Shown here: piece after piece, positions 4,843 to 40,695 of the stretch
Layout of the letters: the number at the start of each line of letters is the position of its first letter
How positions within the stretch are numbered: position 1 is the stretch's first letter
Origin: Candidatus Pacearchaeota archaeon UBA73
Lineage (GTDB): Archaea; Nanobdellota; Nanobdellia; Pacearchaeales; GW2011-AR1
Reading direction: 5' to 3'
DNA length: 64,000 nt
Assembly: GCA_002496015.1 (NCBI GenBank)
Contig: DAIF01000014.1
Coordinates: forward strand, 891-64,890
Translations under genes and position numbers: made by a program
Notes under the pieces: model-generated
What the model saw: only the letters and a program-made list of their open reading frames with translations
Told to the model about the DNA's origin: nothing
Database searches by the model: none

Positions 4843-6470
4843 TGTCAAACGTAACTTTCCTCCGCAAGGAACTTGAATCCTTAATCGGAAAGATAACAAA
4901 AGATGTAGAAGAAAAAATCTCACTATTCGGCACACCATTAGAACGCATCAGTGACGATGAACTTGAAGTCGAAATTTTCCCAAACCGCCCGGACCTGCTC
5001 TCACTTCAGGGCTATGCCCGCAGCTTTAATGCATTTCTTGGCAAATCCCCCGGACTAGCAAGATACACAATCCACAAGCCGGAAGACAATTATACAATTA
5101 AAATATTTAATTCCGTAAAAGACGTTCGACCATTTACAGTCTGCGCGATAGTAAAAAACATAAAATTCACAGACGAGAAAATTAAGTCGATAATAGATTT
5201 ACAGGAGAAACTACACTTCACCGTCGGCAGAAATAGGAAGAAGCTGGCAATAGGAGTTTACCCATTGGAAAAAATAACTCTCCCCATTAGATATGAAGCA
5301 AGAAAACCGAAAGACATCAGATTTATCCCGTTGGAAGCAGACAGAGAAATGGATGCCATCCAGATTTTAACAAGCCACCCCACAGGAAGAGACTACGCTC
5401 ACCTTCTTGAAGGCAAAGAACTCTTCCCAGTTTTCGTCGATGCGAAAAACAAAATACTTTCAATGCCCCCCATAATAAACAGTCACGATACCGGAAAAGT
5501 CTCCCTCAACACAACAGACGTGTTCGTAGAATGTTCTGGCTTTGACTTGCTTGTCCTGCAAAAAACTCTTGCAATCATCTGTACAACGCTCGCCGATATG
5601 GACGGAAAAATATATCAAATGATTTTAGATTATACAAATAGAAAAATCATCACCCCGGACTTCACCCCGGAAAAAATGAAAATTTCCATAAACAATGTAA
5701 ACAAACTCCTCGGCTTGGACATTAAGGAAAAAGACTTAGAAAAGCTTTTACCGAAAATGGGTTACGAATACAAGAACAAAACCGTTTCCATCCCCGCGTG
5801 GAGGACAGACATTCTCCACGAAGTAGACATCATAGAAGATATCGCGATTGCGTACGGGTATGACAAAATTTCCCCTGCAATTCCTAATGTCTCAACAATC
5901 GGTGAAGAATCTAAAGAATCCAAGATGAAATCATTTATATCCGAACTGCTCATCGGACTCGGCTTATTGGAAATCTCAACATATCACTTGATAAAAAAAC
6001 AAGACGCCGAACAGAACAATTTACAGGACATGATAGAATTAGAAAACTCCAAAACAGAATACAAATATCTCCGCCAAGACCTCGTAACTCCCGGACTAAG
6101 AGTGCTATCTGAAAACAAGGACAACGAATATCCTCAAGAACTTTTCGAAATCGGCACGGTCTTCTCATTAGACAAGAAGAACAAATTCGAAACAGGCATA
6201 AAAGAAACGGAAAACCTCTGCATCTTGGCTTGCCCGGGAAACTTCACGAAAATCAAACAGGTCTTAGACAGCCTGACAAAAAACCTCGGGCAGGCTTACT
6301 CGCTGGAAGAATCAACGCACCATCTGCTTATTGACGGCAGAACCGCAGTGATAAAAATCGGAGAGCATCGTGCGGGAATCATGGGCGAGCTGCACCCTGA
6401 AACCCTGAAAGCATGGGGGATTAAAATGCCGACATCCTACCTTGAGCTTCCTGTAAAAAGTCTCTTCTAA
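4842..6470 (+). CDS. pheT: Phenylalanine--tRNA ligase beta subunit (archaeal type)
   Basis: Archaeal PheT B3/4 and B5 regions (EVEIFPNRPDLLSLQGYARSF). It is translationally coupled to pheS. Confidence 0.9.
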   Translation: MSNVTFLRKELESLIGKITKDVEEKISLFGTPLERISDDELEVEIFPNRPDLLSLQGYARSFNAFLGKSPGLARYTIHKPEDNYTIKIFNSVKDVRPFTVCAIVKNIKFTDEKIKSIIDLQEKLHFTVGRNRKKLAIGVYPLEKITLPIRYEARKPKDIRFIPLEADREMDAIQILTSHPTGRDYAHLLEGKELFPVFVDAKNKILSMPPIINSHDTGKVSLNTTDVFVECSGFDLLVLQKTLAIICTTLADMDGKIYQMILDYTNRKIITPDFTPEKMKISINNVNKLLGLDIKEKDLEKLLPKMGYEYKNKTVSIPAWRTDILHEVDIIEDIAIAYGYDKISPAIPNVSTIGEESKESKMKSFISELLIGLGLLEISTYHLIKKQDAEQNNLQDMIELENSKTEYKYLRQDLVTPGLRVLSENKDNEYPQELFEIGTVFSLDKKNKFETGIKETENLCILACPGNFTKIKQVLDSLTKNLGQAYSLEESTHHLLIDGRTAVIKIGEHRAGIMGELHPETLKAWGIKMPTSYLELPVKSLF

Positions 6471-13734: not shown

Positions 13735-14193
13735 TTAATTGCAAGCCACCGCCACAGACTCTGGGCAAGTCTCTGTATTACCACTACCATCTCTAACCCT
13801 TGCAGCTACTCTTGCTATAAAGGGCGAAGCCGTCCCTATATCATTAACCTGAGTAGCCTGAGACCCTAGAGCTGTCGTTGGAGCAATTCCTTGAGAAACA
13901 TAAGTAATCCCATTATCATCTTCCACTACAGCAGCCACAGAATCCAAGGTAACCTCTGTAGGTACACTCGTCTTTAACTGATAAGCAACATTAGCAGTTG
14001 CTCCAGAAAGACTACACTGTGTTGGCTCAACAGTAACCAAGAAACATGCATTCCTCAATGAAGTTTGGGAAGCGGCATTATCAAAAGTAGGTCTCAAGAA
14101 ACCCCAAACAATAGCAACAGCAGCAAGCGCCAAAAGCACTATAAGCACCGTAGCGACGATGTCACTCAATCCTCTTTTGTTCATCATGTCCAT
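13735..14193 (-). CDS. Class III signal peptide (archaeal type IV pilin-like) protein, paralog 1
   Basis: Its N-terminus NKRGLSDIVATVLIVLLALAAVAIVWGF is nearly identical to paralog 2 at nucleotide level over about 110 nt. The C-terminal domain is unrelated. A TTTATAA element lies about 20 nt upstream of the start. Confidence 0.7.
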   Translation of the reverse strand: MDMMNKRGLSDIVATVLIVLLALAAVAIVWGFLRPTFDNAASQTSLRNACFLVTVEPTQCSLSGATANVAYQLKTSVPTEVTLDSVAAVVEDDNGITYVSQGIAPTTALGSQATQVNDIGTASPFIARVAARVRDGSGNTETCPESVAVACN

Positions 14194-14210
14194 ATCTAAA
14201 AAAGACTTCT

Positions 14211-14217
14211 TTATAAA
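14211..14217 (-). promoter_or_regulatory. Putative TATA box for the pilin pair
   Basis: TTTATAA on the minus strand lies roughly 18-24 nt upstream of the ATG at 14193, which fits leaderless archaeal promoters. Confidence 0.3.
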
Positions 14218-14264
14218 TGTTTCGTTTTTTCAATTTTGAAAAATTACATTCGATTAAATTTTAT

Positions 14265-14345
14265 TTTTCGACGACGACTTTCACCACCCGCCCCGCCCCC
14301 AATCCCCTCCTCTTTTAATCTCCTCGCTCCTCGTCGCCAATCTCT
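14265..14345. repeat. Fragment of the repeat family G-rich core, reverse orientation
   Basis: The reverse complement GGGGATTGGGGGCGGGGCGGGTGG matches the GGGGCGGGATGATTGGGGTGG core found at 62465 and 41445. Confidence 0.35.
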
Positions 14346-14410
14346 TAACTTCCCATACCTTAAAGCTCAAGTTAGATTAACAAATCTCCAAATCTAAGAT
14401 TCATATATCT

Positions 14411-15023
14411 CTAAAGCTCCCGCTCTAAATTAATTATCTCCGTCGTACTCCAAGTCCTGATCGCTCCTTGTTTCTTGAAATGTTCATCATCTGACCAAAT
14501 ACCATCGTTGGGAACAGAAAGAGCCAGCGCAACAAAAGGGACATCTTTCTCATCTACTTCCCCAATTATCTCTTCAGCTTCTTCCATTTTATGAGCATAC
14601 TTCTCTCTGTGAACAACTTCAATACTCTCTATCAATAAACCAAACAATGTCTCAAACTCCTCCTACGTCAATCCGGCTCTTTCAATTATTATTTTTCAGC
14701 TCTGTCCAGAGTTTTGATTTTTTCTAAAATTTGGATGGTGGGGCGGGTTAGCAAGGGCGAGCACGTTACGCGAGTGCAAAAGTTGATTAATTTCGAGCGT
14801 GGCTGCGAGCAGGGTTTTTCCTCGTAGAGGAAATGTTAGTGGGGATTTGAAAAATCAAAACATACTAACTCCGAAACAGAGCTGTTTTTTCATATTTTCT
14901 AATTTCAGAGATAAGTGTTTCAGGAGCATAAAGAATAAATGGCGAGTCAATAAGAAAATTTCGGGTCAGACCTTCCTTAAACATCCCTGAAAAGACAACA
15001 TTAGTATCAATGATAAAAATCAT
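14411..15023 (-). pseudogene. PIN-domain (VapC-like) toxin gene disrupted by a MITE insertion
   Basis: The N-terminal fragment (minus strand from 15023) reads MIFIIDTNVVFSGMFKEGLTRNFLIDSPFILYAPETLISEIRKYEKT and runs into the repeat, where it meets a stop. The C-terminal fragment (14647-14411) EEFETLFGLLIE...VPFVALALSVPNDGIWSDDEHF continues the alignment with the intact paralog at 15626-16033. Confidence 0.7.
14698..14883. mobile_element. MITE-like repeat, family A copy 2 (about 186 bp), inserted inside the PIN gene
   Basis: Its termini AGCTCTGTCC...GAAACAGAGCT are inverted repeats. The internal sequence matches 8515-8648 and 12800-12915, and the interrupted host ORF is visible on both flanks. 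Confidence 0.75.
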
Positions 15024-15035
15024 TTTCTATGATTC

Positions 15036-15254
15036 TCAGCAATCCCCCCCTCTAACAAGCTTATCTAATTCTTCAACATCTTTCTTTGTCAGCTTGGATT
15101 TATTAGCTATAGCATTCGCTATTCTTATCTTTCTGAGATGCTCAAGCAATGCCTTTCTGACGACCCCGCTCCAGTTAACCTCTCCGTGCCTCTTCATCTC
15201 TTCCTTCAAATCTTTCGGCACACTCAAAGTGATATTTTCCATATGTGTATACAC
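15036..15254 (-). CDS. Ribbon-helix-helix/CopG-like antitoxin (VapB-like) upstream of the disrupted PIN gene
   Basis: ENITLSVPKDLKEEMKRH is a typical RHH beta-strand and helix. It ends 12 nt before the PIN start. Confidence 0.55.
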   Translation of the reverse strand: MYTHMENITLSVPKDLKEEMKRHGEVNWSGVVRKALLEHLRKIRIANAIANKSKLTKKDVEELDKLVRGGDC

Positions 15255-15434
15255 ATAATCACACCATTTAATTTTTTCCTTCTCCCGTTAAATATCATAA
15301 ACGACAAACATAATTATCTCAAACCGCAGTTAATTCTATGAATAAAAAGTCCATCAAAACTAACAAAGAACTGCAAGAAAAGGCAGATATTCTCAAATAA
15401 GAAACCTTAAATATCTCAAACGATAACCAATCCT

Positions 15435-15629
15435 ATGAGTGAAATCAAAATAGAAATCCCTGAAGAACTGAAAAGAAAAATAGAAACCAAAATAGGCCTG
15501 ACTCTCTTAGTTAAAAGACTAGTCAAGCACCTCGAAGAAGAACAAGAAATGATAGACTGGTCCGTAAAACTCCAGAGAACTGCAAGAAAAGGCAGATACA
15601 GAAAGCTTAAAGAAAAAGGATTGATATGA
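15435..15629 (+). CDS. Antitoxin-like small protein (VapB-like)
   Basis: A 64-aa ORF (SEIKIEIPEELKRKIE) that overlaps the downstream PIN gene by 4 nt (ATGA). Confidence 0.5.
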   Translation: MSEIKIEIPEELKRKIETKIGLTLLVKRLVKHLEEEQEMIDWSVKLQRTARKGRYRKLKEKGLI

Positions 15630-16033
15630 AAATAGTGGCAGATTCAAACATTTTATTTACTTTCTTTTGGAAAGACTCATTTACAAAGGGCATTCTCGTC
15701 GACCAAAATTTTGAATTTTTCGCTCCAGAAATAGCAATTCACGAAATAAAAAATAACAAACAAGAAATAACCAAAAAAACAAAATCTTCCGAAGAAGAAT
15801 TCAATTCGTTACTTGGAGAGTTAGCTATCTTTGTAGAGTTTATTCCCCTCGACGAATACATTGATAAGGTTAGTGAAGCAGACGTGATATCTGACAAAGA
15901 TGATATCGATTTCATCGCTCTCGCCCTCAAATTAAACTGTGAAATATGGTCAAACGATCCTCATCTAAAAGAACAAAACAAGGTAAAGGTTTATACCACT
16001 TCAGAATTTATCCAACACATCGAACAATCTTAA
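15626..16033 (+). CDS. PIN-domain ribonuclease (VapC-like toxin)
   Basis: It has the MKIVADSNIL acidic start, a conserved D in DIDFIALAL, and an ATGA overlap with the upstream small gene. Confidence 0.7.
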   Translation: MKIVADSNILFTFFWKDSFTKGILVDQNFEFFAPEIAIHEIKNNKQEITKKTKSSEEEFNSLLGELAIFVEFIPLDEYIDKVSEADVISDKDDIDFIALALKLNCEIWSNDPHLKEQNKVKVYTTSEFIQHIEQS

Positions 16034-16037
16034 AAAA

Positions 16038-16343
16038 TCATTTATGCAAAAACCAAAACGAAAACAACTTTTCATTTTTATCGTCGAATTTTGCAAAACC
16101 AAATCTCTCGAACTGCACAACCGAATTTTCAGAAATTTGTTTCAGAGCCGGCTCACCCAACCCCGAAATCCATCTCCCATCCTCCATCAAAATCCGGACT
16201 TTCAAATTTTTATCTTCGGCAGGAAGCCAATGAATCATTTTCGCACCAAGTCTTGCATCAACTTCCTTAGAAAAAAACTTTTCGTTGTGATTTCCCATAT
16301 CGGCATTCTTGATATTTAATAAACATATATAAGAAACCTTCAA
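16038..16343 (-). other. Stand-alone paralog or gene fragment of the GluRS C-terminal (anticodon-binding) domain
   Basis: NLKVRILMEDGRWISGLGEPALKQISENSVVQFERFGFAKF...FWFLHK aligns with the C-terminus of the gltX product in this window (YVDVRIFMPNGNFINGFGDIGLKSLSVGELIQFERFGFCRL...FWFTHK). Confidence 0.5.
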
Positions 16344-16417
16344 TAGACAAGTTAAACAGAATACTTATCAAATACGTCCCATTTAGACAGAAGGTCATCA
16401 TAAATTATAAATCTAAA

Positions 16418-17422
16418 CTACTGTTTATCTAAGAACTTGTCTATTTCCTCACTTAAGACCCCTACAGAATAAGATTTACGTTTATTGTCTTTAAGGATCT
16501 CCTGATCCATATCAGACATATCGTATATAGCAACACTCAAGCTATCCCCTATACCTTCTTCTATATTTTTCGGCACGCCTAGATCTAAAATTAAAACATT
16601 TCTTCTCATAGAAGATAAGTCTTCTCGTTTAATCGTTTTCTCATTTGAAGCAATACAAGTCAATATAATGTCTGCTTCTGAGATGATATGTTTAATATCA
16701 ACAAGATCAACCGCTACAATATCGAACATTTCGGCAAGCTGTTCTACTTTCGTCCTACTTCTTCCTGCAACAAAAATCTTTAAGGGAAATAGGCGAGAAA
16801 TCCTTTTGATCAGTTTTCTAGCCAGCATACCTGTGCCTATGATAAGAAAAGATGCATCATGAATAATATTAATCTTGTTCTTCGAGATTATTTCAATAGC
16901 CACATCTGCATAAGAAAAGAAACTTCCTCTCAGAGGATACTTTCTCTTTAAAGACGCGCTTTTCGTTATTACAACATCAAAGAATAAATCTAACTCTTTA
17001 TCTGTAAAGTTTCTTTCCTTGCAAGATTTGTAAGCAGATTTAACTTGCATAAAAATATCTCTCTCGCCCAATATAAAAGAGTCTAAACCGCAACAAAGTC
17101 GAATCAAATGCTTAGTTAAAGACTTCCCCGTAAATACTTCTACATTCAACTCCGTGACTTCATTAGGAATGGTTTCTTGGATTATCTCTCTGAGTAGTTC
17201 AGCGGAAAAAGAAATGCTTGGAAGATGAGAAACATAAAGTTCAAACCTATGACACGTAGCTATCAAAATAAAATTACTTCCTTTATATGCTTTTAATTTA
17301 GATAGAATTATTTCATAAAATAATTCCTCATTATCCCTAAACCACCCGTAGAGGTTATCTAATAAAAGCTTCGAAGTAATTCTATGATTAATGGACAAAC
17401 CAGTCAGCCTTCTACAACTCAT
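16418..17422 (-). CDS. hemA: Glutamyl-tRNA reductase-like protein (HemA family)
   Basis: The catalytic-Cys motif ATCHRFELY (canonical TCNRxEIY), ILGERDIFMQVK (canonical ILGExQI..QVK) and a Rossmann IIGTGMLARKL are present. The region is strongly AT-rich. Confidence 0.55.
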   Translation of the reverse strand: MSCRRLTGLSINHRITSKLLLDNLYGWFRDNEELFYEIILSKLKAYKGSNFILIATCHRFELYVSHLPSISFSAELLREIIQETIPNEVTELNVEVFTGKSLTKHLIRLCCGLDSFILGERDIFMQVKSAYKSCKERNFTDKELDLFFDVVITKSASLKRKYPLRGSFFSYADVAIEIISKNKINIIHDASFLIIGTGMLARKLIKRISRLFPLKIFVAGRSRTKVEQLAEMFDIVAVDLVDIKHIISEADIILTCIASNEKTIKREDLSSMRRNVLILDLGVPKNIEEGIGDSLSVAIYDMSDMDQEILKDNKRKSYSVGVLSEEIDKFLDKQ

Positions 17423-18159
17423 ATTATGGTAGTTTGATCAGACTTAGCAGGAACAAACTCTAAGGAAAATTTAGAATCCCATAAAAACCTCTTCTTGATA
17501 AACCTCAACATAACGAGTGTGGCTGCCGTTACTTCTTCAACAAGAGCAGTATTAACTAATATTTCCTCAAGATAGTGCTCAGTAATATCCGGTTTTATCT
17601 TGAGTTTTTTTACTTCACGTATCCAATATTGAACTGAAGGAGTAGTTTTACCATTTATGAAAAATAAGGCTTTCAATATGAAGGGCAATGCATAATAAAC
17701 CAGCCACTTTTTTGTAATATTATCATCTTGCTCGACAGAAGATATCTTCTTTTCTATCATGTCTACTCTATAAGAGAGCTTAGATTTAGTAAGATCACTT
17801 ATCTTAAACGACTTAAACCTTTTCTGTACTCTCCTCAAGAGGGTTTTACAATATTCGGAATCTTGTTCGTACACTATCTTCCCAGTTGCTAGAGCCCTTA
17901 TTAGAATTGGATCGTCATTACGCAAGCAATTCTCAAATCTTTCTTGAGAATAATAAAAACATTCCACTCTCTCCGATTTTTCCGTAGTCCAGATTTTAAC
18001 CTTGTCTGTTCCAAAAGTAATGATAAAAAAGTCATAGTCTGCATAATTCTCTTTGATAGTCTCTTCTGTTCCCGACCTACTTCCAGAGAAAAATATAGCT
18101 CTTGTATCGGATGTTTTTATTAAGTCCAGAATCCCTTCTATAAATTTAGAGTATTTCAT
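17419..18159 (-). CDS. Hypothetical protein, possible nucleotidyltransferase fold
   Basis: FFSGSRSGTEETIKENYADYDFFII resembles a GS...D.D nucleotidyltransferase motif. It overlaps hemA by 4 nt. Confidence 0.3.
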   Translation of the reverse strand: MKYSKFIEGILDLIKTSDTRAIFFSGSRSGTEETIKENYADYDFFIITFGTDKVKIWTTEKSERVECFYYSQERFENCLRNDDPILIRALATGKIVYEQDSEYCKTLLRRVQKRFKSFKISDLTKSKLSYRVDMIEKKISSVEQDDNITKKWLVYYALPFILKALFFINGKTTPSVQYWIREVKKLKIKPDITEHYLEEILVNTALVEEVTAATLVMLRFIKKRFLWDSKFSLEFVPAKSDQTTII

Positions 18160-18223
18160 AATAATATTTATTATATCATTATGTATAAAAAATTAACTTT
18201 CCTCAAGGCAGCAAGAAAATGTA

Positions 18224-19558
18224 ATGAAAAATTTATCTCAACTCGCTATTTTCAAGAATAAAGAAAATAATATATACTCTCTTAGAACTTTAATCAATAT
18301 GCAAATAAGGGATTATATAATAAAAGATTCGGCTATTACAAAAAGATTCAACAGAGATTTTTTGAATAACGAGATAAATAAAGAATATATCAAGAGAATA
18401 GATATTTATGATGGATTTTTACCAAAAATGCTATCAGAGAGATTATTCAAATACGGCGGCTATATCAAATTAAGTAAAATACAGAATAAGGAAGAAGTAT
18501 TTTACTCAGAAAAGAAGAGAACTCTTGCTGTTGCCTGTTATGCTGGAAGAGCTCGCAAAAATCACCTTATCTGGTTGATAAAGAGATTTATGAGAATAAA
18601 TGGAATGCGCTACAAAATTTCTGTCTTGAATAATGGAGGCAAATCGCAAGAACAGATAGCTAAAGAATGGATTAGCAGGCTTCCGAGACCAATACCTACA
18701 AAAATAATATTTGGATCACTACAAGGCATAAGCACATTACTTCATAGTTACGACCTACCGTCCGAAATAATAACTAACAAGAATGATTTTTCTTACTTTA
18801 TCAATTATTATAATGCCCGATTCATAGAATATTCTTCAGAGCAACACATTAAAAGTTTATTTGGAAAATTCGATAGAAAGTCTGCCTTTGATTTAGTCGA
18901 ATCCCTTCGCAAAGACCCGTTGTTTTTAGTAGATTCTAAGATACTTTGGGCAATAAGAAAAAGAAAAGATATATTTGAAAGAGGATTCCCCAAGAGTCTA
19001 AATTATATACGAGATGAATATTTAGATTATGCTTATCTTAAGATTAAAGGAAAACGCTTTTTAGTTACTGGTTATCCCTACGGGGATCAAATGGATACTG
19101 TATTGAAAATGCTAAGGAAAAAGTCTAGAATTACAGCAGTTTATTTTATAGGAAGCTGTGGTTCTCTAAAGAAAAATATCAAATTAAACGACTTAATAGT
19201 GCCAAATGCAATCTCTTACAAAGGGAGAACATTGAGCTTTAAGAATGACCTAAAAGAACTGATCGGCAGAAAATTTTGTTATGGACCATTAAAACTGTTT
19301 TGTTTTGACGGAAAATCTAAGGTAGTTGACAGCCCATTAACAGAAATGGTTACGCAATTAGAGTCTTTTGCTAAAGAAGGGTTTGTAAGCGTTGATGTGG
19401 AAGCATATCACTTGATAAGTGCAAGTAAAGGCATACCTAAGATAGGCGTGATATATTACATCTCAGACATGCCATTACATGGAAGTAATCTAACAAACTC
19501 GCCACCGAGCTATGTTGGATGGAAAACAGCAGCTACAAATTTAATCAAGATAATATAG
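18224..19558 (+). CDS. Hypothetical protein with a C-terminal PNP/UDP-type nucleoside phosphorylase-like domain
   Basis: The C-terminal 170 aa (VTGYPYGDQMD...FIGSCGSL...VSVDVEAYHL) resembles the phosphorylase-1 superfamily. The N-terminal 270 aa is unassigned. Confidence 0.35.
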   Translation: MKNLSQLAIFKNKENNIYSLRTLINMQIRDYIIKDSAITKRFNRDFLNNEINKEYIKRIDIYDGFLPKMLSERLFKYGGYIKLSKIQNKEEVFYSEKKRTLAVACYAGRARKNHLIWLIKRFMRINGMRYKISVLNNGGKSQEQIAKEWISRLPRPIPTKIIFGSLQGISTLLHSYDLPSEIITNKNDFSYFINYYNARFIEYSSEQHIKSLFGKFDRKSAFDLVESLRKDPLFLVDSKILWAIRKRKDIFERGFPKSLNYIRDEYLDYAYLKIKGKRFLVTGYPYGDQMDTVLKMLRKKSRITAVYFIGSCGSLKKNIKLNDLIVPNAISYKGRTLSFKNDLKELIGRKFCYGPLKLFCFDGKSKVVDSPLTEMVTQLESFAKEGFVSVDVEAYHLISASKGIPKIGVIYYISDMPLHGSNLTNSPPSYVGWKTAATNLIKII

Positions 19559-19613
19559 CCAAGGCAAACGCATGCAGTAAACAGAACCTAGAAACCTTTA
19601 GACAATCCCCCCC

Positions 19614-21272
19614 TTATTTATGAGTAAACCAAAATTCATAAACAACTTTTTTATTTTCTTTCTCTTTTTTATCAAGTCTACAAAAACCAAATCTCTCAAA
19701 TTGAATTAATTCTCCAACAGAAAGACTTTTCAGACCAATATCCCCAAACCCATTAATAAAATTTCCATTTGGCATAAATATTCGTACATCTACATAATCG
19801 GAAACCCATTGAATTCTCGGAACATCTTTGTTATCCACTGTAGTAAAAGTTGCATTTGGCAATCGATTTAATTGGATGTTAAAAAGATGCAAGAGCCTTA
19901 TTTCCTTGCCAGAGAATTCTTCAAAATCCTCACGGGATATATAAATCTGACCAACTTTAAGTTTTCTGGTATCATCAAAGTCCGGATGAACTTTAAGTTC
20001 AACTTCAGATACATTAGGACGATTATTAACTATTAATCCTATGGGATTCTGAACAAAAAAGTACCTCTTTGCCCGCGCATCGATTATTTTTCGGTTAATA
20101 GACGCGATCATATCGAAATCAAGATTTACTTGATGTCTAGACAGTCCAACTTGCTCAACAAGTCCGTAAATTGCTTCTTTCGTTATTCCCCTCCTCCTTA
20201 ACGCTCTCAGAGTGATAAGCCTCGGATCATCCCATCCGACTAGCTCACCAGATTCGACTAGCTCCCGAATTTCTCTGCCCTGAGTAGTAAAATCAATGAC
20301 ATTAAATCGACCATACTGAATAATCTTTTGCTTTCGAAGTCCAAGCAAATCTTTAATTTTATCCTGAAGTTCAATTCTCAGATCAAATTCATTACTTCGT
20401 AAAATAAGAGTCACACCCATCAAACTATCCTCGATAGGATTATAAAAATCATACATGGGCCAAACTTTATATTTATCCCCTTGTCTGTAATGCTTAACAG
20501 GTATTGCGCGAAACAAAACCGAATCCCTCATAACATGATTCTTGCTTTTCATATTTCCTTTTATCCTCAAAACCGCTTCACCCTTAGTATATTTTCCATC
20601 AACAAACTTTTTCCATTCATCTAAATTATTCTTCCTCGAATTTCTTCTACAGTCACAAGCTTGTCCCTTGTGTCGTAAATCCTGCATTTTATTCCTATCA
20701 CAAAAGCACATATACGCACGATTCATCCCGATAAGCTTCCTTGCATAATCATATAAAATTTCCATATCATCAGAGATAAACTTTACTCCGTCAACTTTTA
20801 TACCTAAATAATTTAAAACATCTTCTTTCATTGCATCAACATACTCCTGCGAAACCTTTTCAGGATTTGTGTCTTCGAATCTCAAAAAACACTTCCCATT
20901 ATATTTTCGAGCATATTGATAATTCAAGAGAAATGAAATAGCATGTCCTATATGGGCGTACTTAGAAGGCTCCGGTGCAATTCTGGTCACCACTTCATTT
21001 AACCCAGAAATATCGATGTCGGGCAGCATCTTATCCACAACTTCTCTTTCTTTGACAAATCCCTTAAACTTTTCAAATTCCTTTTCTCTTGCAGAAACAG
21101 ACATCTTATTTACTTCATCAACAATCTTCTGCAGCGAAGGCATTATCTTACCAATGTCTTTCTTATCCAACCCGTGATTAAACAACTTAGGCAAAACCTT
21201 ACCGACAACCGCTCTTCCATATTCAATCGCGTTCTTCAAAGCGTACGCCCACATTTCATTTTCCAGTTTCAT
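19614..21272 (-). CDS. gltX: Glutamyl-tRNA synthetase (archaeal GluRS/GlxRS type)
   Basis: Class I HIGH motif (PSKYAHIGHAISFLLN), an MKSKN (KMSKS-like) loop, and a C-terminal beta-barrel anticodon-binding domain. Confidence 0.85.
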   Translation of the reverse strand: MKLENEMWAYALKNAIEYGRAVVGKVLPKLFNHGLDKKDIGKIMPSLQKIVDEVNKMSVSAREKEFEKFKGFVKEREVVDKMLPDIDISGLNEVVTRIAPEPSKYAHIGHAISFLLNYQYARKYNGKCFLRFEDTNPEKVSQEYVDAMKEDVLNYLGIKVDGVKFISDDMEILYDYARKLIGMNRAYMCFCDRNKMQDLRHKGQACDCRRNSRKNNLDEWKKFVDGKYTKGEAVLRIKGNMKSKNHVMRDSVLFRAIPVKHYRQGDKYKVWPMYDFYNPIEDSLMGVTLILRSNEFDLRIELQDKIKDLLGLRKQKIIQYGRFNVIDFTTQGREIRELVESGELVGWDDPRLITLRALRRRGITKEAIYGLVEQVGLSRHQVNLDFDMIASINRKIIDARAKRYFFVQNPIGLIVNNRPNVSEVELKVHPDFDDTRKLKVGQIYISREDFEEFSGKEIRLLHLFNIQLNRLPNATFTTVDNKDVPRIQWVSDYVDVRIFMPNGNFINGFGDIGLKSLSVGELIQFERFGFCRLDKKEKENKKVVYEFWFTHK

Positions 21273-33447: not shown

Positions 33448-34365
33448 ATGAAGCTCTTGGATTTCATAGTTTTAGCTTTGCTATTTGCGCTGCTAGTCCT
33501 CGGCATGTATATTTTGTGGCTGAACTTTCCAAGCCAGCCAACGGAGTTTGATAGGTATGCCGCAAATTTTTCTTTTGACTTGCCTGAGAGGAGTTCGCAG
33601 TTTCACCTGAATATGAGGTATCCTGACAGGACAATAACTTATTTTATCTCTCAGAATTGCAGCATCAGAAAAACAAACGATTTTATTACGGCGACAAAGT
33701 TTCTCGAAGAGCGAACTATTTTGAGATTTAGGCAATCGGACAGGCCAGATATTCTCGTTACATGTTCGAACATCGCGCCGCAGCCGAATGAAGAAGGACA
33801 TTTTGTCGCGGGAGAGGGAGGACCCTCGGTAATTGTGAATACGACGAGATTTGCAGTAATAATGCTTGGTAGAATCGCGCTTTATCGCACAGAAACGTGC
33901 GACACTCCACAAGTAGCTATACACGAACTTCTACACGCTCTCGGGTTTGACCACAATAACAATAAATCCAGCATAATGTATCCTGTAACAGATTGCAGCC
34001 AAGTGCTGGATAATTATATCCTAGAAGAAATACGCGACTTGTATTTGATACCTTCAGCAGGAGATCTCGTGATAGAAAGGGTGAATGCGAATAAGACTGG
34101 GAGGTATCTCAATTTTGAAGCAGTGATAACGAATTATGGGCTAAAGGATATTGAAAAGTCTCGGCTTAAGGTGATTGTCAAAGGATCAGTCATTGAAGAG
34201 TTTGACACTAATAGTTTGAACATGGGTTCGAGAAAGAGTCTGACTATATCCAACTTGAGAATTCCGGGAGACACTACGAGAGTTACGCTGGCAGTCGAAA
34301 CAGATGAGAATGAAATAGACAAGACTAATAATGTTGCAGAAATAAGACTAGCTGGGGAAAGCTAA
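33448..34365 (+). CDS. Membrane-anchored zinc metalloprotease (HExxHxxGxxH metzincin-like) with a C-terminal CARDB-like domain
   Basis: N-terminal TM helix, HELLHALGFDH zinc motif, and a C-terminal beta-rich repeat (ITNYGLKDIEKSRLKVIV...NVAEI). Confidence 0.65.
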   Translation: MKLLDFIVLALLFALLVLGMYILWLNFPSQPTEFDRYAANFSFDLPERSSQFHLNMRYPDRTITYFISQNCSIRKTNDFITATKFLEERTILRFRQSDRPDILVTCSNIAPQPNEEGHFVAGEGGPSVIVNTTRFAVIMLGRIALYRTETCDTPQVAIHELLHALGFDHNNNKSSIMYPVTDCSQVLDNYILEEIRDLYLIPSAGDLVIERVNANKTGRYLNFEAVITNYGLKDIEKSRLKVIVKGSVIEEFDTNSLNMGSRKSLTISNLRIPGDTTRVTLAVETDENEIDKTNNVAEIRLAGES

Positions 34366-34539
34366 TTTTTCAACCCTTCTTGGATTGGTGTACCTATGTG
34401 CCATAAGTATAACTTCCTGCGCCCAGTTATCCTCGCGTAACGCGGTTCCACTCAAGATAATTGATATAATCTCAGTTTTGACAAAACCGACATGTTAGGA
34501 ATCTTTAAATATGAATTTTACTCAAGATTAAGATAAAAG

Positions 34540-35040
34540 ATGAGTGAAAAAGACCAGGTTTCGAAAGAGAAGTTGGAGCATACAGGAATCTTTGACTTCA
34601 AAGCAATGTATTCTTACGCGCATAGATGGTTTGCTGAGCAGGGATACGGAGTAACTGAAGAGAAATATTCAGAAAAGTCTAAGGGCGATTCCAGAGATTT
34701 AATTATAGAGTGGAAGGTGACAAAAGATTTGTCCGACTATTTCAGGTTTGAATACAAAATCAAATTCGAAATAGAAGGGCTGTCTGATGTCGAGGTCGAG
34801 ATAGATGGGCAGAGAAAACAGATGAACAAAGGCAAGGTAGTTGTAGAGATAACATCTACTCTGGTGATGGATAAGGATGCAAAATGGGAGACTACTCCAT
34901 TTAGCAGGTTCATGAGAGATATTTATAATAAGTATATTGTTCCTTCAAGAGTCGAAGCAATGAGACAGCTTCTTTTAAGCAAAGGTAATGGATTTAAGGA
35001 TGACCTAAAGTCTTTCATGAACCTGGCGGCAAGACGGTAG
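34540..35040 (+). CDS. Hypothetical protein
   Basis: A 166-aa ORF with no recognisable motif. Confidence 0.35.
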   Translation: MSEKDQVSKEKLEHTGIFDFKAMYSYAHRWFAEQGYGVTEEKYSEKSKGDSRDLIIEWKVTKDLSDYFRFEYKIKFEIEGLSDVEVEIDGQRKQMNKGKVVVEITSTLVMDKDAKWETTPFSRFMRDIYNKYIVPSRVEAMRQLLLSKGNGFKDDLKSFMNLAARR

Positions 35041-35098
35041 TTTTGGTCTTGAAACGTTCCATACAAATCTTTATATAATTCTACCAAAGTGTCTTAGC

Positions 35099-36466
35099 AT
35101 GAAAAAAGCAGGCTTGTTGTTGCTTTGCATAGTGTTGTTTTCTGTGAGCACTTTAGCCAGTCCTGACCTCGAGGTGGAAAAGGTGAATCTGAGGAATGTC
35201 GCGGTCACGGAGATTGGCAATCCAGTTTATTATGACCTTCTAATAAAAAATCTTGGTGGGGAAGATCAGTTCAGGATATTCACTTTGGTTGGAGTCCAGA
35301 TTGAACCGAGCGAATATGTAACTTTGCCGCCGGGAGAGACGAAGATAAAGATAGAAGCTAATCTGGGGAATAAGATTCTTAAAGAAAGGAAAGGTCTTCT
35401 TTCTTTTGAATATCAGATAAAGGGGCTAGAACGCGAGCTTTACAAGGACAAGCTACTTGTCAATATTGTTTCTTTGAAGGACATCCTTAATATTAATTAC
35501 CGCGATTTTCATCCAGCAGATAATCTGATAGAGGTCCACATCAACAATTCCGCGAATGTCGAGCTTAACAACTTAACTCTTATTCTTGATTCGGTTTTTT
35601 TCCGTGAATCTATTCCATTGGAGTTAGCACCATACGAGAACAAGTCTTTTTCAGTTTCGGTCAATCTGGACGGCAATGAGAAACTTGTCGCGGGCCCATA
35701 CATTGTTTCTGCAACGATTGTGACTGGCAGGGAAAACGTCAATCTCGATGGAATAATAAATTTCCTTGAGCGTGAAGGGACTTCGGTTGATGAGTCAACA
35801 CAGGGGTTAATAATCAGGACGAAGATTGTAACTAAGACAAACAAGGGCAATACGCCCGTGACGGCAGAGGTTAGTCTTACGAAAGATGCTATATCCAGAT
35901 TATTCACAACTCATTCTATTGAGCCAGTGTCGACGAGTCGCGAGGGTTTTTTTGTCGAGTATGTCTGGCGAAAGAGCCTGAATCCGGGCGAATCACTTAT
36001 CGTGACCTCGAGGACGAATTATACAGTGCCTTTCTTTGTAGCACTTTTTATAGTGGCAGTCGGAGTGCTTGTTAAGTTCTATTATTTAAAAGCAGTATAT
36101 ATCAGGAAGAGGGTCTCGCTTGTCAGGACGAAGGGCGGCGAGTTTGCGTTGAGGGTTGTTCTAAAAGTGAAGGCGAGAAAGAGTGTTGAGGGCTTGCAGT
36201 TGATAGATTCTCTACCTGGGATGACCAAGCTTTATGAAAACTTCGGGAAACAGCCGGATAAAATAGAGAAAGATGCCCGAAGATTAGTCTGGAACGTGGG
36301 GCATTTACGAAGAGGAGAGGAGAGAGTCTATTCTTATGTGATGTATTCAAAGCTTAAAGTTGTCGGGCGGCTTGAGCTGCCGCAGGCGTTTGCTATATTC
36401 AAGAAGGAAGGGAAGGTGGGAGAGGTTTATTCCAACCGTACGTATTTTGCGATTGAGGGGAGTTAG
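35099..36466 (+). CDS. Secreted or surface protein with an N-terminal signal peptide and a C-terminal TM anchor
   Basis: MKKAGLLLLCIVLFSVSTLA signal, a beta-rich ectodomain with CARDB-like segments, and TM VPFFVALFIVAVGVLV near residue 300. Confidence 0.45.
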   Translation: MKKAGLLLLCIVLFSVSTLASPDLEVEKVNLRNVAVTEIGNPVYYDLLIKNLGGEDQFRIFTLVGVQIEPSEYVTLPPGETKIKIEANLGNKILKERKGLLSFEYQIKGLERELYKDKLLVNIVSLKDILNINYRDFHPADNLIEVHINNSANVELNNLTLILDSVFFRESIPLELAPYENKSFSVSVNLDGNEKLVAGPYIVSATIVTGRENVNLDGIINFLEREGTSVDESTQGLIIRTKIVTKTNKGNTPVTAEVSLTKDAISRLFTTHSIEPVSTSREGFFVEYVWRKSLNPGESLIVTSRTNYTVPFFVALFIVAVGVLVKFYYLKAVYIRKRVSLVRTKGGEFALRVVLKVKARKSVEGLQLIDSLPGMTKLYENFGKQPDKIEKDARRLVWNVGHLRRGEERVYSYVMYSKLKVVGRLELPQAFAIFKKEGKVGEVYSNRTYFAIEGS

Positions 36467-37068
36467 GATTTGGAGACTATTAATATGTCTTCATCTGTTC
36501 CGATTGATTTTCTAGCCTTATCAAAAATATCTTTTCTTATTGCTTGGAATGGAATGAGTTTATCAAAACTGGGGTTGTGAACATAAATGTTTTCTTGGTC
36601 ATATCCGACGATTGGCAGAAAATGGCCGCGATATTGTCCAGTGTTTTTATTTTCAATTACATTCCAATCTATTAGCACAATCGGCAGACTGTTTTCAGTT
36701 ACGAATTTTAGGATTCCATTTAATTCTAATGAAACTTGCTTCATCTTTACCTTAAGTTCTTCTGCTCTTTTGAGCCAGTTGTCAAACTTGTTTTGGTCCA
36801 TAGAGTCGTGTTCTTTATAATAATCAAGTTCGCTATTTTCTTCATTGTAAGCCAGAGTTTTTGTGAATAGTTTTGTGTTATAACCCAGCGCTGCGGAAGA
36901 GACTGCTAGTTGGATAGTGTTAGTTCCTTCTTTTCCAGTTCTCCCTGTTTCTTTTTCAAAAATTTCTATTCCCAAGTCTTTATCTAAGAAAGCTACAGCC
37001 ATTCTCAGTGCGGACGGTCCGCAATTGTAAAAGGTTGTTTGTTTAAAAAAAGGCACGTCTAATTTCAT
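36463..37068 (-). CDS. C39-like papain-fold cysteine peptidase
   Basis: FFKQTTFYNCGPSALRMAVAFL (Q...CG catalytic Cys region) and HFLPIVGYD (His). I chose the start at MKLDVPFF, 2 nt after the cdc48 stop. Confidence 0.55.
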   Translation of the reverse strand: MKLDVPFFKQTTFYNCGPSALRMAVAFLDKDLGIEIFEKETGRTGKEGTNTIQLAVSSAALGYNTKLFTKTLAYNEENSELDYYKEHDSMDQNKFDNWLKRAEELKVKMKQVSLELNGILKFVTENSLPIVLIDWNVIENKNTGQYRGHFLPIVGYDQENIYVHNPSFDKLIPFQAIRKDIFDKARKSIGTDEDILIVSKS

Positions 37069-37069
37069 T

Positions 37070-39364
37070 TTATCCTGCGTAGAGTGGACCTGTCTCGAGA
37101 CCTGCTTTTGCGCGTTTGAGATAGTAATCTTCAATCTTCTTATAACGCTGAGCTGTCTCAGTCGAGACCGACGGCTTGACTTTTCTGAACGCCTCGTCGA
37201 TATCTTCCTTGGATACTTCTTTGGCTTCTTTGTCTTTTCGGAGTGCATTAAGCGCAGCCTCTCTAATAAGAGCTTCTATATCGGCTCCCACGTAACCTTC
37301 AGTTTGTTTTACCATGTCAAAAAGTTTCACATCCTTAGCCAATGGTGTGTTTTTTGTGTGGATTTTGAAGATTTCCATCCTCGATTCTTCGTCAGGGACA
37401 TCTGCCAAGATTATCCTGTCGAACCGGCCTGGACGCAAGAGCGCCGGGTCGAGCATGTCAGGGCGGTTGGTCGCGCCGATTATCGTGACGTCTTTTAGAC
37501 CTTCCAATCCATCGATTTCTGCAAGCAATTGGTTTAGAACTCTTTCAGTAACTTTGCTACCCTGCTCAATTCCGCGCTTTCCTGCGAGCGCATCTATTTC
37601 GTCGAAGAAAATCACACAAGGAGCAACTTGTCTTGCCCGCTCGAAAACTTTTCTTACACCTTCTTCTGATTTTCCGACCCACATGCTTAACAACGAAGGA
37701 CCTTTGACCTGAATGAAGTTTGCTTCTGATTCCTTAGCGACGGCTTTTGCGAGCAGAGTCTTTCCTGTTCCGGGAGGACCGTAAAGCAAAATGCCTCTTG
37801 GAGCGCGGATTCCGAGTCTTGCAAATGCTTCTGGTCTTTGTATTGGCCATTCCACAGCTTCCTTAAGTTCCTGTTTTGTTCTTTCCATTCCGCCGATGTC
37901 GTTCCAGCCGATGTTTGGCGCCTCGACGAAGACTTCTCTCATCGCACTTGGGCGGACTACCTTGAGCGCTTCTTCAAAATCTTCCAGCCGGATTATTGCC
38001 TTGTCCAGAACTTCCGGAGGAATTGGTTCCTCTTCTTCAAGCTTTAAAGAAGGAAGCATTTTTCTTAGGACGTTCATAGCAGCTTCTTTTGTCAGAGCTG
38101 AGAGGTCCGCGCCGACGAAGCCATGCGTGCGCGCTGCGAGATCTTCAAGATTTACATTTCTAGCGAGAGGCATATTTCTTGTATGAATTTTTAAGATGTC
38201 TAATCTGCCTTTTTTATCTGGAACAGAAATTTCAATCTCCCGATCAAACCTTCCCGGTCTGCGGAGTGCGGGATCAACCGAATTCACGCGATTCGTCGCG
38301 CCGATAACAATCACTTTTCCGCGGGATTTCAGACCGTCCATCATCGTCAATAATTGTGAGACAACTCTTCGTTCCACTTCGCCCTGAACATCTTCACGTT
38401 TCGGGGCTATCGCATCTATTTCGTCGAAGAAAATTATTGAAGGAGCATTTTTTTCAGCGTCTTCGAAAATGTCCCTGATCTTTTTTTCAGATTCGCCGTA
38501 GAATTTTGACATTACTTCCGGACCGTTAAGCAGGATGAAGTTTGCTTCTGATTCATTGGCTACGGCTTTTGCGAGCAGAGTCTTTCCTGTTCCGGGAGGA
38601 CCGTGGAGAAGAACACCTTTTGGAGGATCTATTCCCAGCTTCTGGAAAATCTCTGGGTGTTTGAGGGGAAGCTCGACCATTTCTCTTATTTTCTTAATCT
38701 CATCTTCCATGCCTCCGACGTCTTCGTAAGCGATGTCTGGGATAGCGTCGTCAGACACTTCAACAGATTTTGGATTGAGAATTATTTCAGTATCTTCATT
38801 GATGAAACAATGCTGTGCAGGGGTGGTGTTCACTACGACGAATCTTATCTGCTGGAAACTGCCTGGAAAACCATGGTTGAACAGGTCTTGGAGGTCTCCA
38901 AAGAAGTCCGGTAATCCTTCTCCGCCCATGAGGTCTTTTCGCCTCTGGACTCCGCCCAAAGAAATTATGTCCCCTTTAGTTATTGGTCTGCCGAGTAATC
39001 CGTTTCTAAGCATTTCGGGATCTGCCTGGACAGTAATGCCCTGCTGAGCTGGAGCAATAGCTACCTTTGTGGCGGGTTTGACTCCTGCTTTTTTTACCTC
39101 GACTTGTTCACCCACACTGACGCGCGCGTTTTTTCTTATAAGGCCGTCAATTCTGATTATGTTCTCGCCTACATCTGCAGGATAAGCGCGATCGACAATC
39201 GCGAGTGTTTCTCTTTGTCCCTTGATTGAGATTATGTCTCCTCTCGCCAGGCCCATTTCCCTCATTAGTTGAGGATCGATTCTTGCAACGCCCTTGTAAA
39301 CGTCGTCTTGTAAAGATTCAACTACCTTCAATCTTATTTGCGGGATGTTATTTAGTTTTACCAT
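37070..39364 (-). CDS. cdc48: CDC48/VCP-like AAA+ ATPase
   Basis: N-terminal CDC48 domain plus two AAA modules, each with [15 protein letters not shown] Walker A, DEID Walker B and second region of homology (SRH) motifs. Confidence 0.95.
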
Positions 39365-39729
39365 CTTTCTTTTCTCTCCTGGTCAGTAAATGATAAGCTG
39401 ACTCTGCCGAAATCCTCAAGACATAGTTTTACCATGTCATTAACATGAGTAGACATACTTTTATTCATGTCATTGATGAAATCGATAATTTCCTTTGGGA
39501 TGCTTATCGCGTGACTGTTACCTACGACTCTCAGTTTGACATTATAAGTCTTTTGTTTCAGATTATTGAAGCTTTCTAACTTGTGGAGGTCGGTTGGATG
39601 GATGATTTTTTCATTACATTCCGGACATTTGATTGCTCTTAATCTGAAGCCCCCTCTAAATACTTCGGATGGTTGCATTTGGACGTTACAGTGTTCACAT
39701 AAAATTTTAGCATCGAATATATCTTTCAT
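39358..39729 (-). CDS. Zinc-ribbon plus AbrB/SpoVT (swapped-hairpin)-like DNA-binding protein
   Basis: CEHCN...CPECN Zn ribbon, and VKLRVVGNSHAISIPKEIIDF resembling AbrB/MazE-type motifs. I chose the start at MKDIFD (39729). The 3' end overlaps the cdc48 start by 7 nt. Confidence 0.4.
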   Translation of the reverse strand: MKDIFDAKILCEHCNVQMQPSEVFRGGFRLRAIKCPECNEKIIHPTDLHKLESFNNLKQKTYNVKLRVVGNSHAISIPKEIIDFINDMNKSMSTHVNDMVKLCLEDFGRVSLSFTDQERKERW

Positions 39730-39750
39730 GGATATACATGAAGTATATAC

Positions 39751-39758
39751 TATATAAA
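39751..39758 (-). promoter_or_regulatory. Putative TATA box for the AbrB-like/cdc48/C39 operon
   Basis: The minus-strand TTTATATA lies about 22-29 nt upstream of the ATG at 39729. Confidence 0.3.
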
Positions 39759-39975: not shown

Positions 39976-40695
39976 ATGAAAATGTTTTTTGGCAAGAAAA
40001 ATAATCTGAAGATGAGAAAGTGTGAAGAATGTGGTAGTCGCAGCGAGGAGAAGTTCAGTTTTTGTCCATTCTGTGGGAATAGTTTTTTTGATTCTAAAAA
40101 AGAAAGAGCAGATTACGGTCTATTAGGCAGAGATGATTTTGTAGAAAATGACGATTCACCTTTTGAGAATATGGGTATGATGGACAAGCTTGTTAATTCG
40201 ATGGTAAACAGCATGATGAAAAATCTTGACCGACAGTTCAAAGAACAGTTCAAGGACATCGAGAAAGATCTGAGCAGGGCGGAAGTTAAGACGTTTCCGA
40301 ATGGGATCAGGATAAAGATTTCCGGACCTTTTCCGGGTGCGATGCCGCAGCCAATGGTAAAGCCGAAGCCAAAGAAAGTCGTGAGGGCTGAGAAACACGA
40401 AGTGAATGAAACGCAACTGAAGAAAATGGGAAATTTGCCTCGGGCAAAGGCAAAGACTTCTGTGAGAAGATTTGGCAACAAAATTGTTTACGAACTATCG
40501 ACGCCGGGAGTTATCTCCGTTGAAGATGTTTTTGTTTCAAGGCTTGAAAGTGGATATGAAATCAAAGCAATCGGAGACAAGAAAATTTATGTGAACTCCG
40601 TGCCAATAAATCTACCATTAAAGAAGTTTTCAATAATGAACAACAAGTTGCTTGTTGAATTCCTTGCAGAACATCCACAGCAGGGTTTTGAATAA
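39976..40695 (+). CDS. Zinc-ribbon protein with a C-terminal Hsp20/alpha-crystallin-like domain
   Basis: CEECG...CPFCG at the N-terminus. The C-terminal KIVYELSTPGVISVEDVFVSRLESGYEIKAIGDKKIYVNSVPIN resembles an alpha-crystallin domain beta-sandwich. Confidence 0.3.
   Translation: MKMFFGKKNNLKMRKCEECGSRSEEKFSFCPFCGNSFFDSKKERADYGLLGRDDFVENDDSPFENMGMMDKLVNSMVNSMMKNLDRQFKEQFKDIEKDLSRAEVKTFPNGIRIKISGPFPGAMPQPMVKPKPKKVVRAEKHEVNETQLKKMGNLPRAKAKTSVRRFGNKIVYELSTPGVISVEDVFVSRLESGYEIKAIGDKKIYVNSVPINLPLKKFSIMNNKLLVEFLAEHPQQGFE

Follow-up and report, generated by a model that had tools for sequence, protein, structure and literature searches.

A zinc-ribbon/AbrB-like regulator, cdc48 and an optional GUCD1-like peptidase in Pacearchaeota: a candidate DPANN counterpart of the archaeal heat-shock operon

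The only dedicated heat-shock regulators described from archaea are Phr and HSR1, in some Euryarchaeota (PMC10653856, PMC9133787). Phr (Pyrococcus/Thermococcus) and HSR1 (Archaeoglobus fulgidus), which fall in arCOG01684, are autoregulatory repressors with palindromic operator sites that overlap the transcription start, and their regulon consists of the small heat-shock protein Hsp20 and a CDC48-type AAA+ ATPase; hsr1 heads an operon with hsp20 downstream, and HSR1 is thought to act via the motif CTAAC-N5-GTTAG upstream of its own gene (PMC9133787, PMC5852551, PMC10653856). Here we describe a locus from Candidatus Pacearchaeota archaeon UBA73 in which a regulator of unrelated fold, cdc48 and a papain-fold peptidase follow one another on the minus strand of a 64-kb stretch of contig DAIF01000014.1 (the window, which comprises the whole 64,000 nucleotides analysed). 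We propose, with a probability of about 0.6, that this is the DPANN version of an archaeal heat-shock or proteostasis operon, organised as an autoregulated regulator–cdc48 bicistron to which a peptidase is optionally added.

From 39758 to 36463 on the minus strand the order is TATA box, regulator open reading frame (ORF), cdc48 and peptidase ORF. A first-pass annotation, made from the sequence alone, had described this as a three-gene operon, and its coordinates and motifs are all present: the regulator ends 7 nt into cdc48 (the overlap is exactly ATGGTAA), the peptidase ATG at 37068 follows the cdc48 stop after one spacer base and the promoter element lies about 25 nt upstream of the first gene (TTTATATA at 39758-39751). 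Its calls of a Zn-ribbon and AbrB-like protein, CDC48 and a Cys/His papain-fold peptidase of the C39 clan also hold. What it missed was the best-conserved feature of the locus, the regulator–cdc48 bicistron with its dual-box candidate operator, and with it the parallel to Phr and HSR1.

The regulator is found directly upstream of cdc48 in ten of ten distinct loci (window/L074, L075, L081, L082, L083-85, L086, L087/88, L047, L030 and the P0128 locus), and where the DNA is readable each of the ten carries two GTATAYAC boxes in front of the pair. In the window the boxes occupy the whole interval from TATA box to start codon. The window holds a single instance of GTATAY-N5-11-GTATAY (39732-39750), where 0.01 would be expected, and in the 867 kb of loci fetched for comparison all regulator promoters have the pattern, with only three further sites. 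The promoter layout is shared between loci, a TATA box being followed after 0-4 nt by two GTATAYAC boxes that are 3-7 nt apart and end 0-15 nt before the ATG; TTTATATA or TTTAAATA stands at the equivalent place in all orthologous promoters. With about 25 nt from the TATA centre to the ATG, the transcript would be leaderless or nearly so. One of the three further dual-box sites, in L046, stands ahead of a PP-loop ATPase-like gene whose TATA it overlaps, and was judged a coincidence. Single GTATAYAC sites elsewhere in the window are at 15245-15254 and 51358, neither at a proteostasis promoter; the former is a perfect palindrome, GTGTATACAC, at the start of a 72-residue antitoxin-like ORF.

The link between regulator and cdc48 extends to the junction of their reading frames. 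The ATGGTAA overlap is shared by at least four loci (window, L082, L083 and L047), and it is mirrored in the Trp that regulator family members conserve at their C-terminus; in most other loci the two genes overlap by 4-8 nt, and in L081, as called, by 35 nt. This arrangement suggests translational coupling of regulator and cdc48. The third position, by comparison, is variable. It is taken by the peptidase in three loci (window, L075 and L081), by Hsp20 in two (L047 and L087/88) and by another gene or none in five (L082, L083, L086, L030 and P0128).

Table 1. Features of the regulator–cdc48–peptidase locus and its immediate neighbours, in window coordinates.
Feature	Position	Strand	Basis or remark
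TATA box TTTATATA, A-rich stretch resembling a B recognition element (BRE) before it	39751..39758	-	sequence and orthologous promoters
Operator-like box pair: GTATATAC (39750-39743), TTCAT spacer, GTATATCC (39737-39730)	39730..39750	-	
Regulator, 123 residues, Zn ribbon plus SpoVT/AbrB (MazE-like)	39358..39729	-	start ATG at 39729
Stop/start overlap ATGGTAA, 7 nt	39358..39364	-	regulator ends W-stop; cdc48 begins M-V
cdc48, CDC48/VAT AAA+ unfoldase, 764 residues (N, D1, D2)	37070..39364	-	profile matches
Peptidase, 201 residues, GUCD1-like (PF09778), C39 clan	36463..37068	-	Pfam
Zn-ribbon (DUF7575-like) protein, 239 residues, divergent from regulator	39976..40695	+	weak zinc-ribbon Pfam matches
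Secreted/membrane protein, 455 residues, convergent; 3' end overlaps peptidase 3' end by 4 nt; first gene of the 455/166/M10-like block	35099..36466	+	

The regulator start was placed at ATG 39729 because the opening MKDIFDAK is invariant across homologues. Four cysteines (C11, C14, C35 and C38) and the motif GNSHAxSIPKE are likewise invariant in 30 regulator homologues. The two CxxC pairs form an N-terminal C4 zinc ribbon, for which Foldseek returns ZifS and ribbons of the RPB9/TFIIS type; weak family matches are to DUF7479, DZR and TIGR04104. In the second half, LRVVGNSHAISIPKEI represents the loop that typifies MazE/AbrB/SpoVT domains, and the predicted order of secondary structure fits the beta-beta-alpha-beta-beta of AbrB-type domains. 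Alignment to MazE with hhalign gave an E-value of 2.6e-4 and a probability of 42%, the MazE sequence used being approximate. Among distant relatives collected with the family profile, seven of ten pass the PF04014 gathering threshold at the equivalent position (24.7-35.9 bits). The label of AbrB-like Zn-ribbon protein given in the first-pass annotation is thus a reasonable one, in view of the four invariant cysteines, the MazE-type loop and these relatives. The protein shares with MazE, AbrB and SpoVT the GNSxAxxIP loop motif and the predicted strand order, and differs from them in its fused N-terminal zinc ribbon and in having cdc48, not a toxin gene, as partner. SpoVT/AbrB/MazE domains are typically DNA-binding.

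No Pfam family spans the whole regulator, and a sequence search against solved structures returned nothing meaningful. The family is narrow: a word-indexed search gave 604 matches, those aligned being 57-87% identical, and clustering at 50% identity leaves 153 representatives among 1.84 billion cluster representatives. A wider set of proteins (P0284-P0349) of about 105-115 residues also combines Zn ribbon and MazE/AbrB domain and lacks the C-terminal extension of the subfamily linked to cdc48. Neither Pfam nor NCBIfam finds a helix-turn-helix or winged helix-turn-helix family in the regulator, which therefore does not belong to arCOG01684; its likeness to Phr and HSR1 is one of operon logic only. 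In that logic the regulator comes first, the boxes sit between TATA and ATG, cdc48 is second and, in L047 and L087/88, Hsp20 is third, so that the CDC48-type ATPase and Hsp20 of the Phr/HSR1 regulon both recur. The differences are plain. A Zn ribbon joined to a SpoVT/AbrB domain replaces the winged helix-turn-helix, the candidate operator is a pair of GTATAYAC boxes and not CTAAC-N5-GTTAG, the regulator is predicted to be coupled to cdc48, and in some lineages the third gene encodes a cysteine peptidase.

The identity of CDC48 is secure. It scores 1052.9 bits on TIGR01243 (cut-off 802.65), contains the Pfam domains CDC48_N, CDC48_2, two AAA and two AAA_lid_3, has GPPGTGKT and FFDEIDA in both AAA domains and is 73-99% identical to its orthologues. 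It is orthologous to the CDC48/VAT of the archaeal CDC48/VAT–20S proteasome system and shares the N-D1-D2 architecture (Forouzan et al. 2012, PMC3493965). The HbYX motif is defined as a hydrophobic or small residue, Phe or Tyr, and any residue, at the very C-terminus (PMC3493965). The protein from the window ends GPLYAG and its orthologues (L/V/M)Y(A/T)G, with Tyr third from the end, a conserved LYAG-type tail that is shifted by one residue relative to the canonical motif. The first-pass annotation regarded CDC48 as an unfoldase that normally feeds the 20S proteasome; by the published definition, the tail of this one departs from the canonical docking motif. Searches of the window for psmA, psmB, PAN, Hsp20 and a second CDC48 found none of them, in a fragment too short to say much of the genome; the antepenultimate Tyr and the lack of a proteasome or PAN gene in these 64 kb are the differences from the described CDC48/VAT–proteasome system. 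Several DPANN orthologues of CDC48 are about 1250 residues long (L083 6372-10112, L084, L087 644-4417 and L088 465-4235) and carry an intein (Intein_splicing plus LAGLIDADG_3) that interrupts the AAA domain of D2 near the equivalent of residue 566 of the window protein. A reading of the locus as a defence system was set aside: PADLOC reports nothing for peptidase or regulator, and CDC48 matches IetA and TRIP13 through its AAA domains only.

The peptidase begins at 37068 and not at the upstream ATG at 37248, since every homologue begins MKL or MRL. Its best family is PF09778 (Guanylate_cyc_2; 94.1 bits against a gathering threshold of 28.1, 1e-26), with residues 5-198 aligned to positions 1-212 of the 212 in the model. 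Further Pfam matches (PF11814, PF13529 and PF03412) belong to the same C39/papain clan, and nearly all of the 80 homologues have precomputed matches to these domains. The catalytic set Q10/C16/H149/N165 has papain-like spacing; across 27 homologues C16 and H149 are invariant, Q10 is nearly so, and the window protein, like most of the others, has Asn at position 165. A C-terminal ARKSxGTDED motif is strongly conserved. Profile alignment places the Gln, Cys, His and Asn on the Gln, Cys, His and Asp of the ComA, LahT and PCAT peptidase domains. The AlphaFold model (predicted local distance difference test score, pLDDT, 95.8) finds as its nearest solved folds PeiR, PCAT1/ComA, phytochelatin synthase and 3erv (template modelling scores, TM, of 0.52-0.59 at 11-17% identity). 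These are clan-level matches to C39, C71 and phytochelatin-synthase folds, and catalytic set and fold together place the protein in the papain-like C39 clan. As the catalytic Cys is already residue 16, there is no room for a signal peptide and the enzyme would be cytosolic. It would be expected to act on peptides or proteins.

The earlier assignment to a C39-like papain fold holds at the level of the clan, with both Cys and His in place, and the closest family is GUCD1-like PF09778 instead of C39 proper. PF03412 reaches just 26.8 bits, no individual stretch passing by itself, and the 201-residue protein stands alone with no ABC transporter adjacent, which led us to reject the reading as an ABC-exporter C39 domain. 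Fold and aligned Gln/Cys/His/Asp(Asn) are shared with the double-glycine peptidase domains of ComA, PCAT1 and LahT; about 60 extra residues, the ARKSxGTDED motif, the cytosolic location and the lack of ABC fusion or nearby transporter set it apart, and the likeness is at clan level only (TM 0.52-0.57, 11-16% identity). The match to GUCD1 is full-length and the best available, and here the domain is an archaeal stand-alone form of 200 residues with nothing that points to a cyclase. A 2023 classification counts PF09778 among the papain-like domains and calls its function unclear (PMC10318531), and a literature search on GUCD1 found no enzymology. Full-length homologues, 30-40% identical, occur on contigs binned as bacterial (L053 Oligoflexia, L057 Binatia and L062 Bdellovibrionota metagenome-assembled genomes); these could represent horizontal transfer or mis-binned DPANN contigs.

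How far the peptidase travels with cdc48 was assessed in a scan of one genome per species, which gave 69 solid DPANN loci with the peptidase, about 63 of them with enough upstream sequence. Direct cdc48–peptidase adjacency was seen in none of the ~63. With tblastn, CDC48 was found within the 6-kb flanks of the peptidase in only two species-level loci, L030, at a distance of 2.6 kb and in opposite orientation, and L047, where a second cdc48 and hsp20 intervene. Clustering of flanking ORFs revealed no neighbour conserved across the peptidase family, and a metagenome scan with a single peptidase query yielded one uninformative 1.5-kb locus. The adjacency is nevertheless not limited to the source genome. 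L074, from the same species (CDC48 99% identical) and a biogas-fermenter sample (ERZ925065), has the same arrangement, as do L075 (peptidase 57.5%, CDC48 84%) and L081 (peptidase 46%, CDC48 86%), in which the downstream genes differ. The conservation of the pair, whose examination the first-pass annotation had called for, amounts to recurrence in three other lineages, L075, L081 and, loosely, L047. The closest distinct relative, L082 (CDC48 93.7% and regulator 85% identical), keeps both flanks, that is the divergent Zn-ribbon gene and a 455/166/M10-like block, and has a 47-nt gap in place of the peptidase. Upstream of the peptidase in L079 (58% identical) is an AsnC-type regulator and in L077 (60%) Hsp20; the gene upstream of P0002 (65%) is cut short by the contig end. 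In a neighbour-joining tree the peptidases linked to CDC48 occupy two adjacent branches, consistent with a single ancestral arrangement. As far as gene order tells, the pairing is real in its subclade, dispensable and lineage-restricted. The first-pass annotation knew of no earlier description of it, and our literature search agrees, having found neither a CDC48/AbrB nor a DPANN CDC48/peptidase pairing.

Elsewhere the peptidase keeps varied company. In a Pfam census of its immediate neighbours at about 70 loci, the commonest downstream neighbour is a proteasome subunit (6 of 70), and the commonest upstream neighbours are Rad50-like proteins (four), AAA_14 ATPases (three), CDC48 (two, plus the window), Hsp20 (two) and M48 peptidases (two); overall the 66 upstream genes represent 90 Pfam families and the 70 downstream genes 76. 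The proteasome neighbour is the beta subunit gene psmB, followed by FttA/aCPSF1. It lies some 80-125 nt downstream of the peptidase (itself at about position 6001) in L006, L008, L012, L029, L033 and L036, and is divergent in L051. A conserved TATA promoter of its own, TTTATAAA, about 60 nt upstream of the ATG, makes psmB a neighbour and not an operon partner. In the same clade the peptidase trails Mre11-Rad50 by 5-55 nt, and this place between Mre11-Rad50 and psmB is its commonest setting outside the cdc48-linked loci. The spread of such loci across the peptidase tree suggests an ancient Mre11-Rad50–peptidase–psmB–FttA block. The recurrence of CDC48, Hsp20 and psmB next to the peptidase is suggestive; Rad50 is an equally persistent neighbour. 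By a rough estimate, the two to four proteostasis arrangements among some 50-60 are not clearly above chance once synteny at clade level is allowed for. In L047 (366-6593) the order is regulator, cdc48, hsp20 and a cdc48 paralogue (48% identical and without the LYxG tail), then, after a 140-nt gap, hsp20 and peptidase. An interruption of the peptidase frame there, between residues ~33 and ~51, may point to a pseudogene or an assembly error.

We envisage that the regulator, as first cistron, represses its own promoter via the two GTATAYAC boxes, and that protein bound between TATA and ATG would block recruitment of RNA polymerase, following the logic of Phr and HSR1. Synthesis of the regulator would be coupled to that of cdc48 through ATGGTAA. 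In the source lineage a GUCD1-like peptidase has been appended one nucleotide behind cdc48 (the stop TAA is at 37072-37070); this gap leaves no intergenic space for a separate promoter, so the peptidase would be co-expressed with the unfoldase and is probably stress-induced. It would be an optional third cistron that alternates with Hsp20 or with nothing, and not an obligate partner of CDC48. That the regulator binds the GTATAYAC boxes is the most likely reading, and a stress response of the operon is proposed by analogy with Phr and HSR1 only. Several observations weigh against this proposed autoregulated heat-shock operon. The regulator itself scores 14.5 bits on PF04014 (gathering threshold 24.7), and all 30 family members likewise match below threshold; its AlphaFold model is of moderate quality (pLDDT 73), from which Foldseek picked up the Zn ribbon but no AbrB fold. 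Conserved translational coupling would equally fit a stoichiometric protein partner of CDC48. Finally, adjacency of cdc48 and peptidase has been kept at 46-58% peptidase identity and with differing downstream flanks, a somewhat greater persistence than a pure passenger would predict.

The last two points lead to the competing explanations. If the regulator were a stoichiometric cofactor or adaptor of CDC48, docking for example on its N domain, and another factor bound the boxes, the conserved ATGGTAA of at least four loci would favour synthesis in a fixed ratio, and one would understand why so small a protein is conserved to a degree unusual for a small regulator (52-87% identity among homologues, against 39-58% for the peptidase) and why so narrow a family (153 of 1.84 billion representatives) always sits beside cdc48 in the loci examined. 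The swapped-hairpin barrel of AbrB and the double-psi barrel found in the N domain of CDC48 are, moreover, reportedly related in evolution (Coles et al. 2005). We hold such a role to be quite improbable, since domains of this type usually bind DNA, the regulator's own promoter carries a conserved palindromic candidate operator and autorepressors encoded by the first cistron are common (HSR1: PMC9133787). Persistence of the peptidase beside cdc48 could instead reflect neutral synteny inherited in a compact genome, the peptidase being an unrelated housekeeping enzyme that settles at operon 3' ends and has no role in stress or proteostasis. Tight spacing alone is weak evidence because 9 of the 31 same-strand neighbour pairs in the window are no more than 10 nt apart, and several convergent genes overlap. 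The peptidase trails Mre11-Rad50 (by 5-55 nt) in another clade, its neighbours are diverse (the 90 and 76 families counted above), the two neighbouring subclades with the CDC48 link fit a single ancestral arrangement and the wider block is conserved in the same relatives. Set against this, proteostasis genes recur among its neighbours (CDC48, Hsp20, psmB and, twice, an M48 peptidase), and here it could hardly escape co-transcription with cdc48; we regard a purely neutral origin as unlikely.

The opposite proposal is a dedicated machine, as the first-pass annotation had suggested, in which CDC48 would unfold or extract and the peptidase would cleave, or remove a C-terminal or Gly-Gly-linked tag. 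Such a machine, with the peptidase tied functionally to the CDC48/20S system, would be an archaeal analogue of eukaryotic Cdc48/p97 and its papain-fold deubiquitinases Otu1/YOD1, ataxin-3 and VCPIP1, in which an unfoldase is likewise paired with a Cys/His papain-fold hydrolase. The 1-nt spacing without room for a promoter, the adjacency in L075 and L081 despite peptidase divergence and different downstream genes, the position of the peptidase behind Hsp20 in L047 (within the cdc48 cluster) and L077, and the proteasome beta gene downstream in 6 of 70 loci and divergent in L051 would all accord with such a machine, as would the cleavage after Gly-Gly by C39 relatives that the names of solved structures indicate. 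Conservation does not bear it out. No species-level locus of the ~63 has the adjacency and two have CDC48 within 6 kb; L082, the closest relative, has no peptidase here, L079 has an AsnC-type gene upstream of a peptidase that is 58% identical, the L047 copy is frame-disrupted and no fixed neighbour accompanies the family. psmB has its own TATA promoter, Rad50 is just as persistent, and the few proteostasis arrangements are, by the rough estimate above, not clearly above chance. In contrast to the deubiquitinases, no UBX, VIM or SHP-type element or other known interaction motif was identified, and the tail of CDC48 departs from the canonical HbYX. A dedicated pair is in our judgement doubtful. 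The recurrent neighbours cdc48, hsp20 and psmB could also be taken to mean that GUCD1-like peptidases are an accessory of the CDC48/20S system in DPANN archaea, for instance a Gly-Gly-directed (C39-like) protease or isopeptidase acting on a small tag, by processing or deconjugation, on the substrates that CDC48 handles. We consider this a long shot; if true, it would be a prokaryotic counterpart of Cdc48-associated deubiquitinases and would offer a first clue to the role of GUCD1, an uncharacterised family, in eukaryotes.

The surroundings of the locus are partly conserved too. Homologues of the 239-residue Zn-ribbon protein occupy the same divergent position in L081 (59% identical), L082 (76%) and L086; these DUF7575-like proteins of about 220-240 residues lie at 39976-40695 (+) in the window, 4434-5132 in L081, 4528-5241 in L082 and 2134-2808 in L086. 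The divergent gene might share regulation with the regulator–cdc48 pair. A resemblance by eye of its C-terminus to an Hsp20 domain was discarded, as Pfam gives no support even at E<=10. On the other side, the 455/166/M10-like block (33448-36466, +) encodes an M10/astacin-like metalloprotease with CARDB (305 residues), a 166-residue protein and the 455-residue protein, the last with an N-terminal signal peptide and a membrane segment at its C-terminus. Synteny of the block extends to L074, L081, L082, L010 and L043, and it abuts cdc48 in L082 and the peptidase in L074 and L077. Further away, small ORFs at 14400-16050 resemble PIN-domain toxin/antitoxin pairs by eye, some of them fragmentary, and the G+C content of 14001-20000 is 0.32-0.37 against about 0.42 elsewhere; this region may be an island or foreign DNA. 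An Rfam scan of the window returned four tRNAs only.

For the biology of these organisms, the conserved pair and its promoter suggest that DPANN archaea may run a circuit of regulator and CDC48, in some cases with a small heat-shock protein, under the control of an unrelated and undescribed family of Zn-ribbon/AbrB regulators with a sharply delimited candidate operator. The pairing of CDC48 with the peptidase would, by the same comparison, be a lineage-restricted and dispensable addition and not a conserved machine, which tempers a tempting claim. The proteostasis neighbours of the GUCD1-like family nonetheless offer a modest lead on its function in archaea and eukaryotes.

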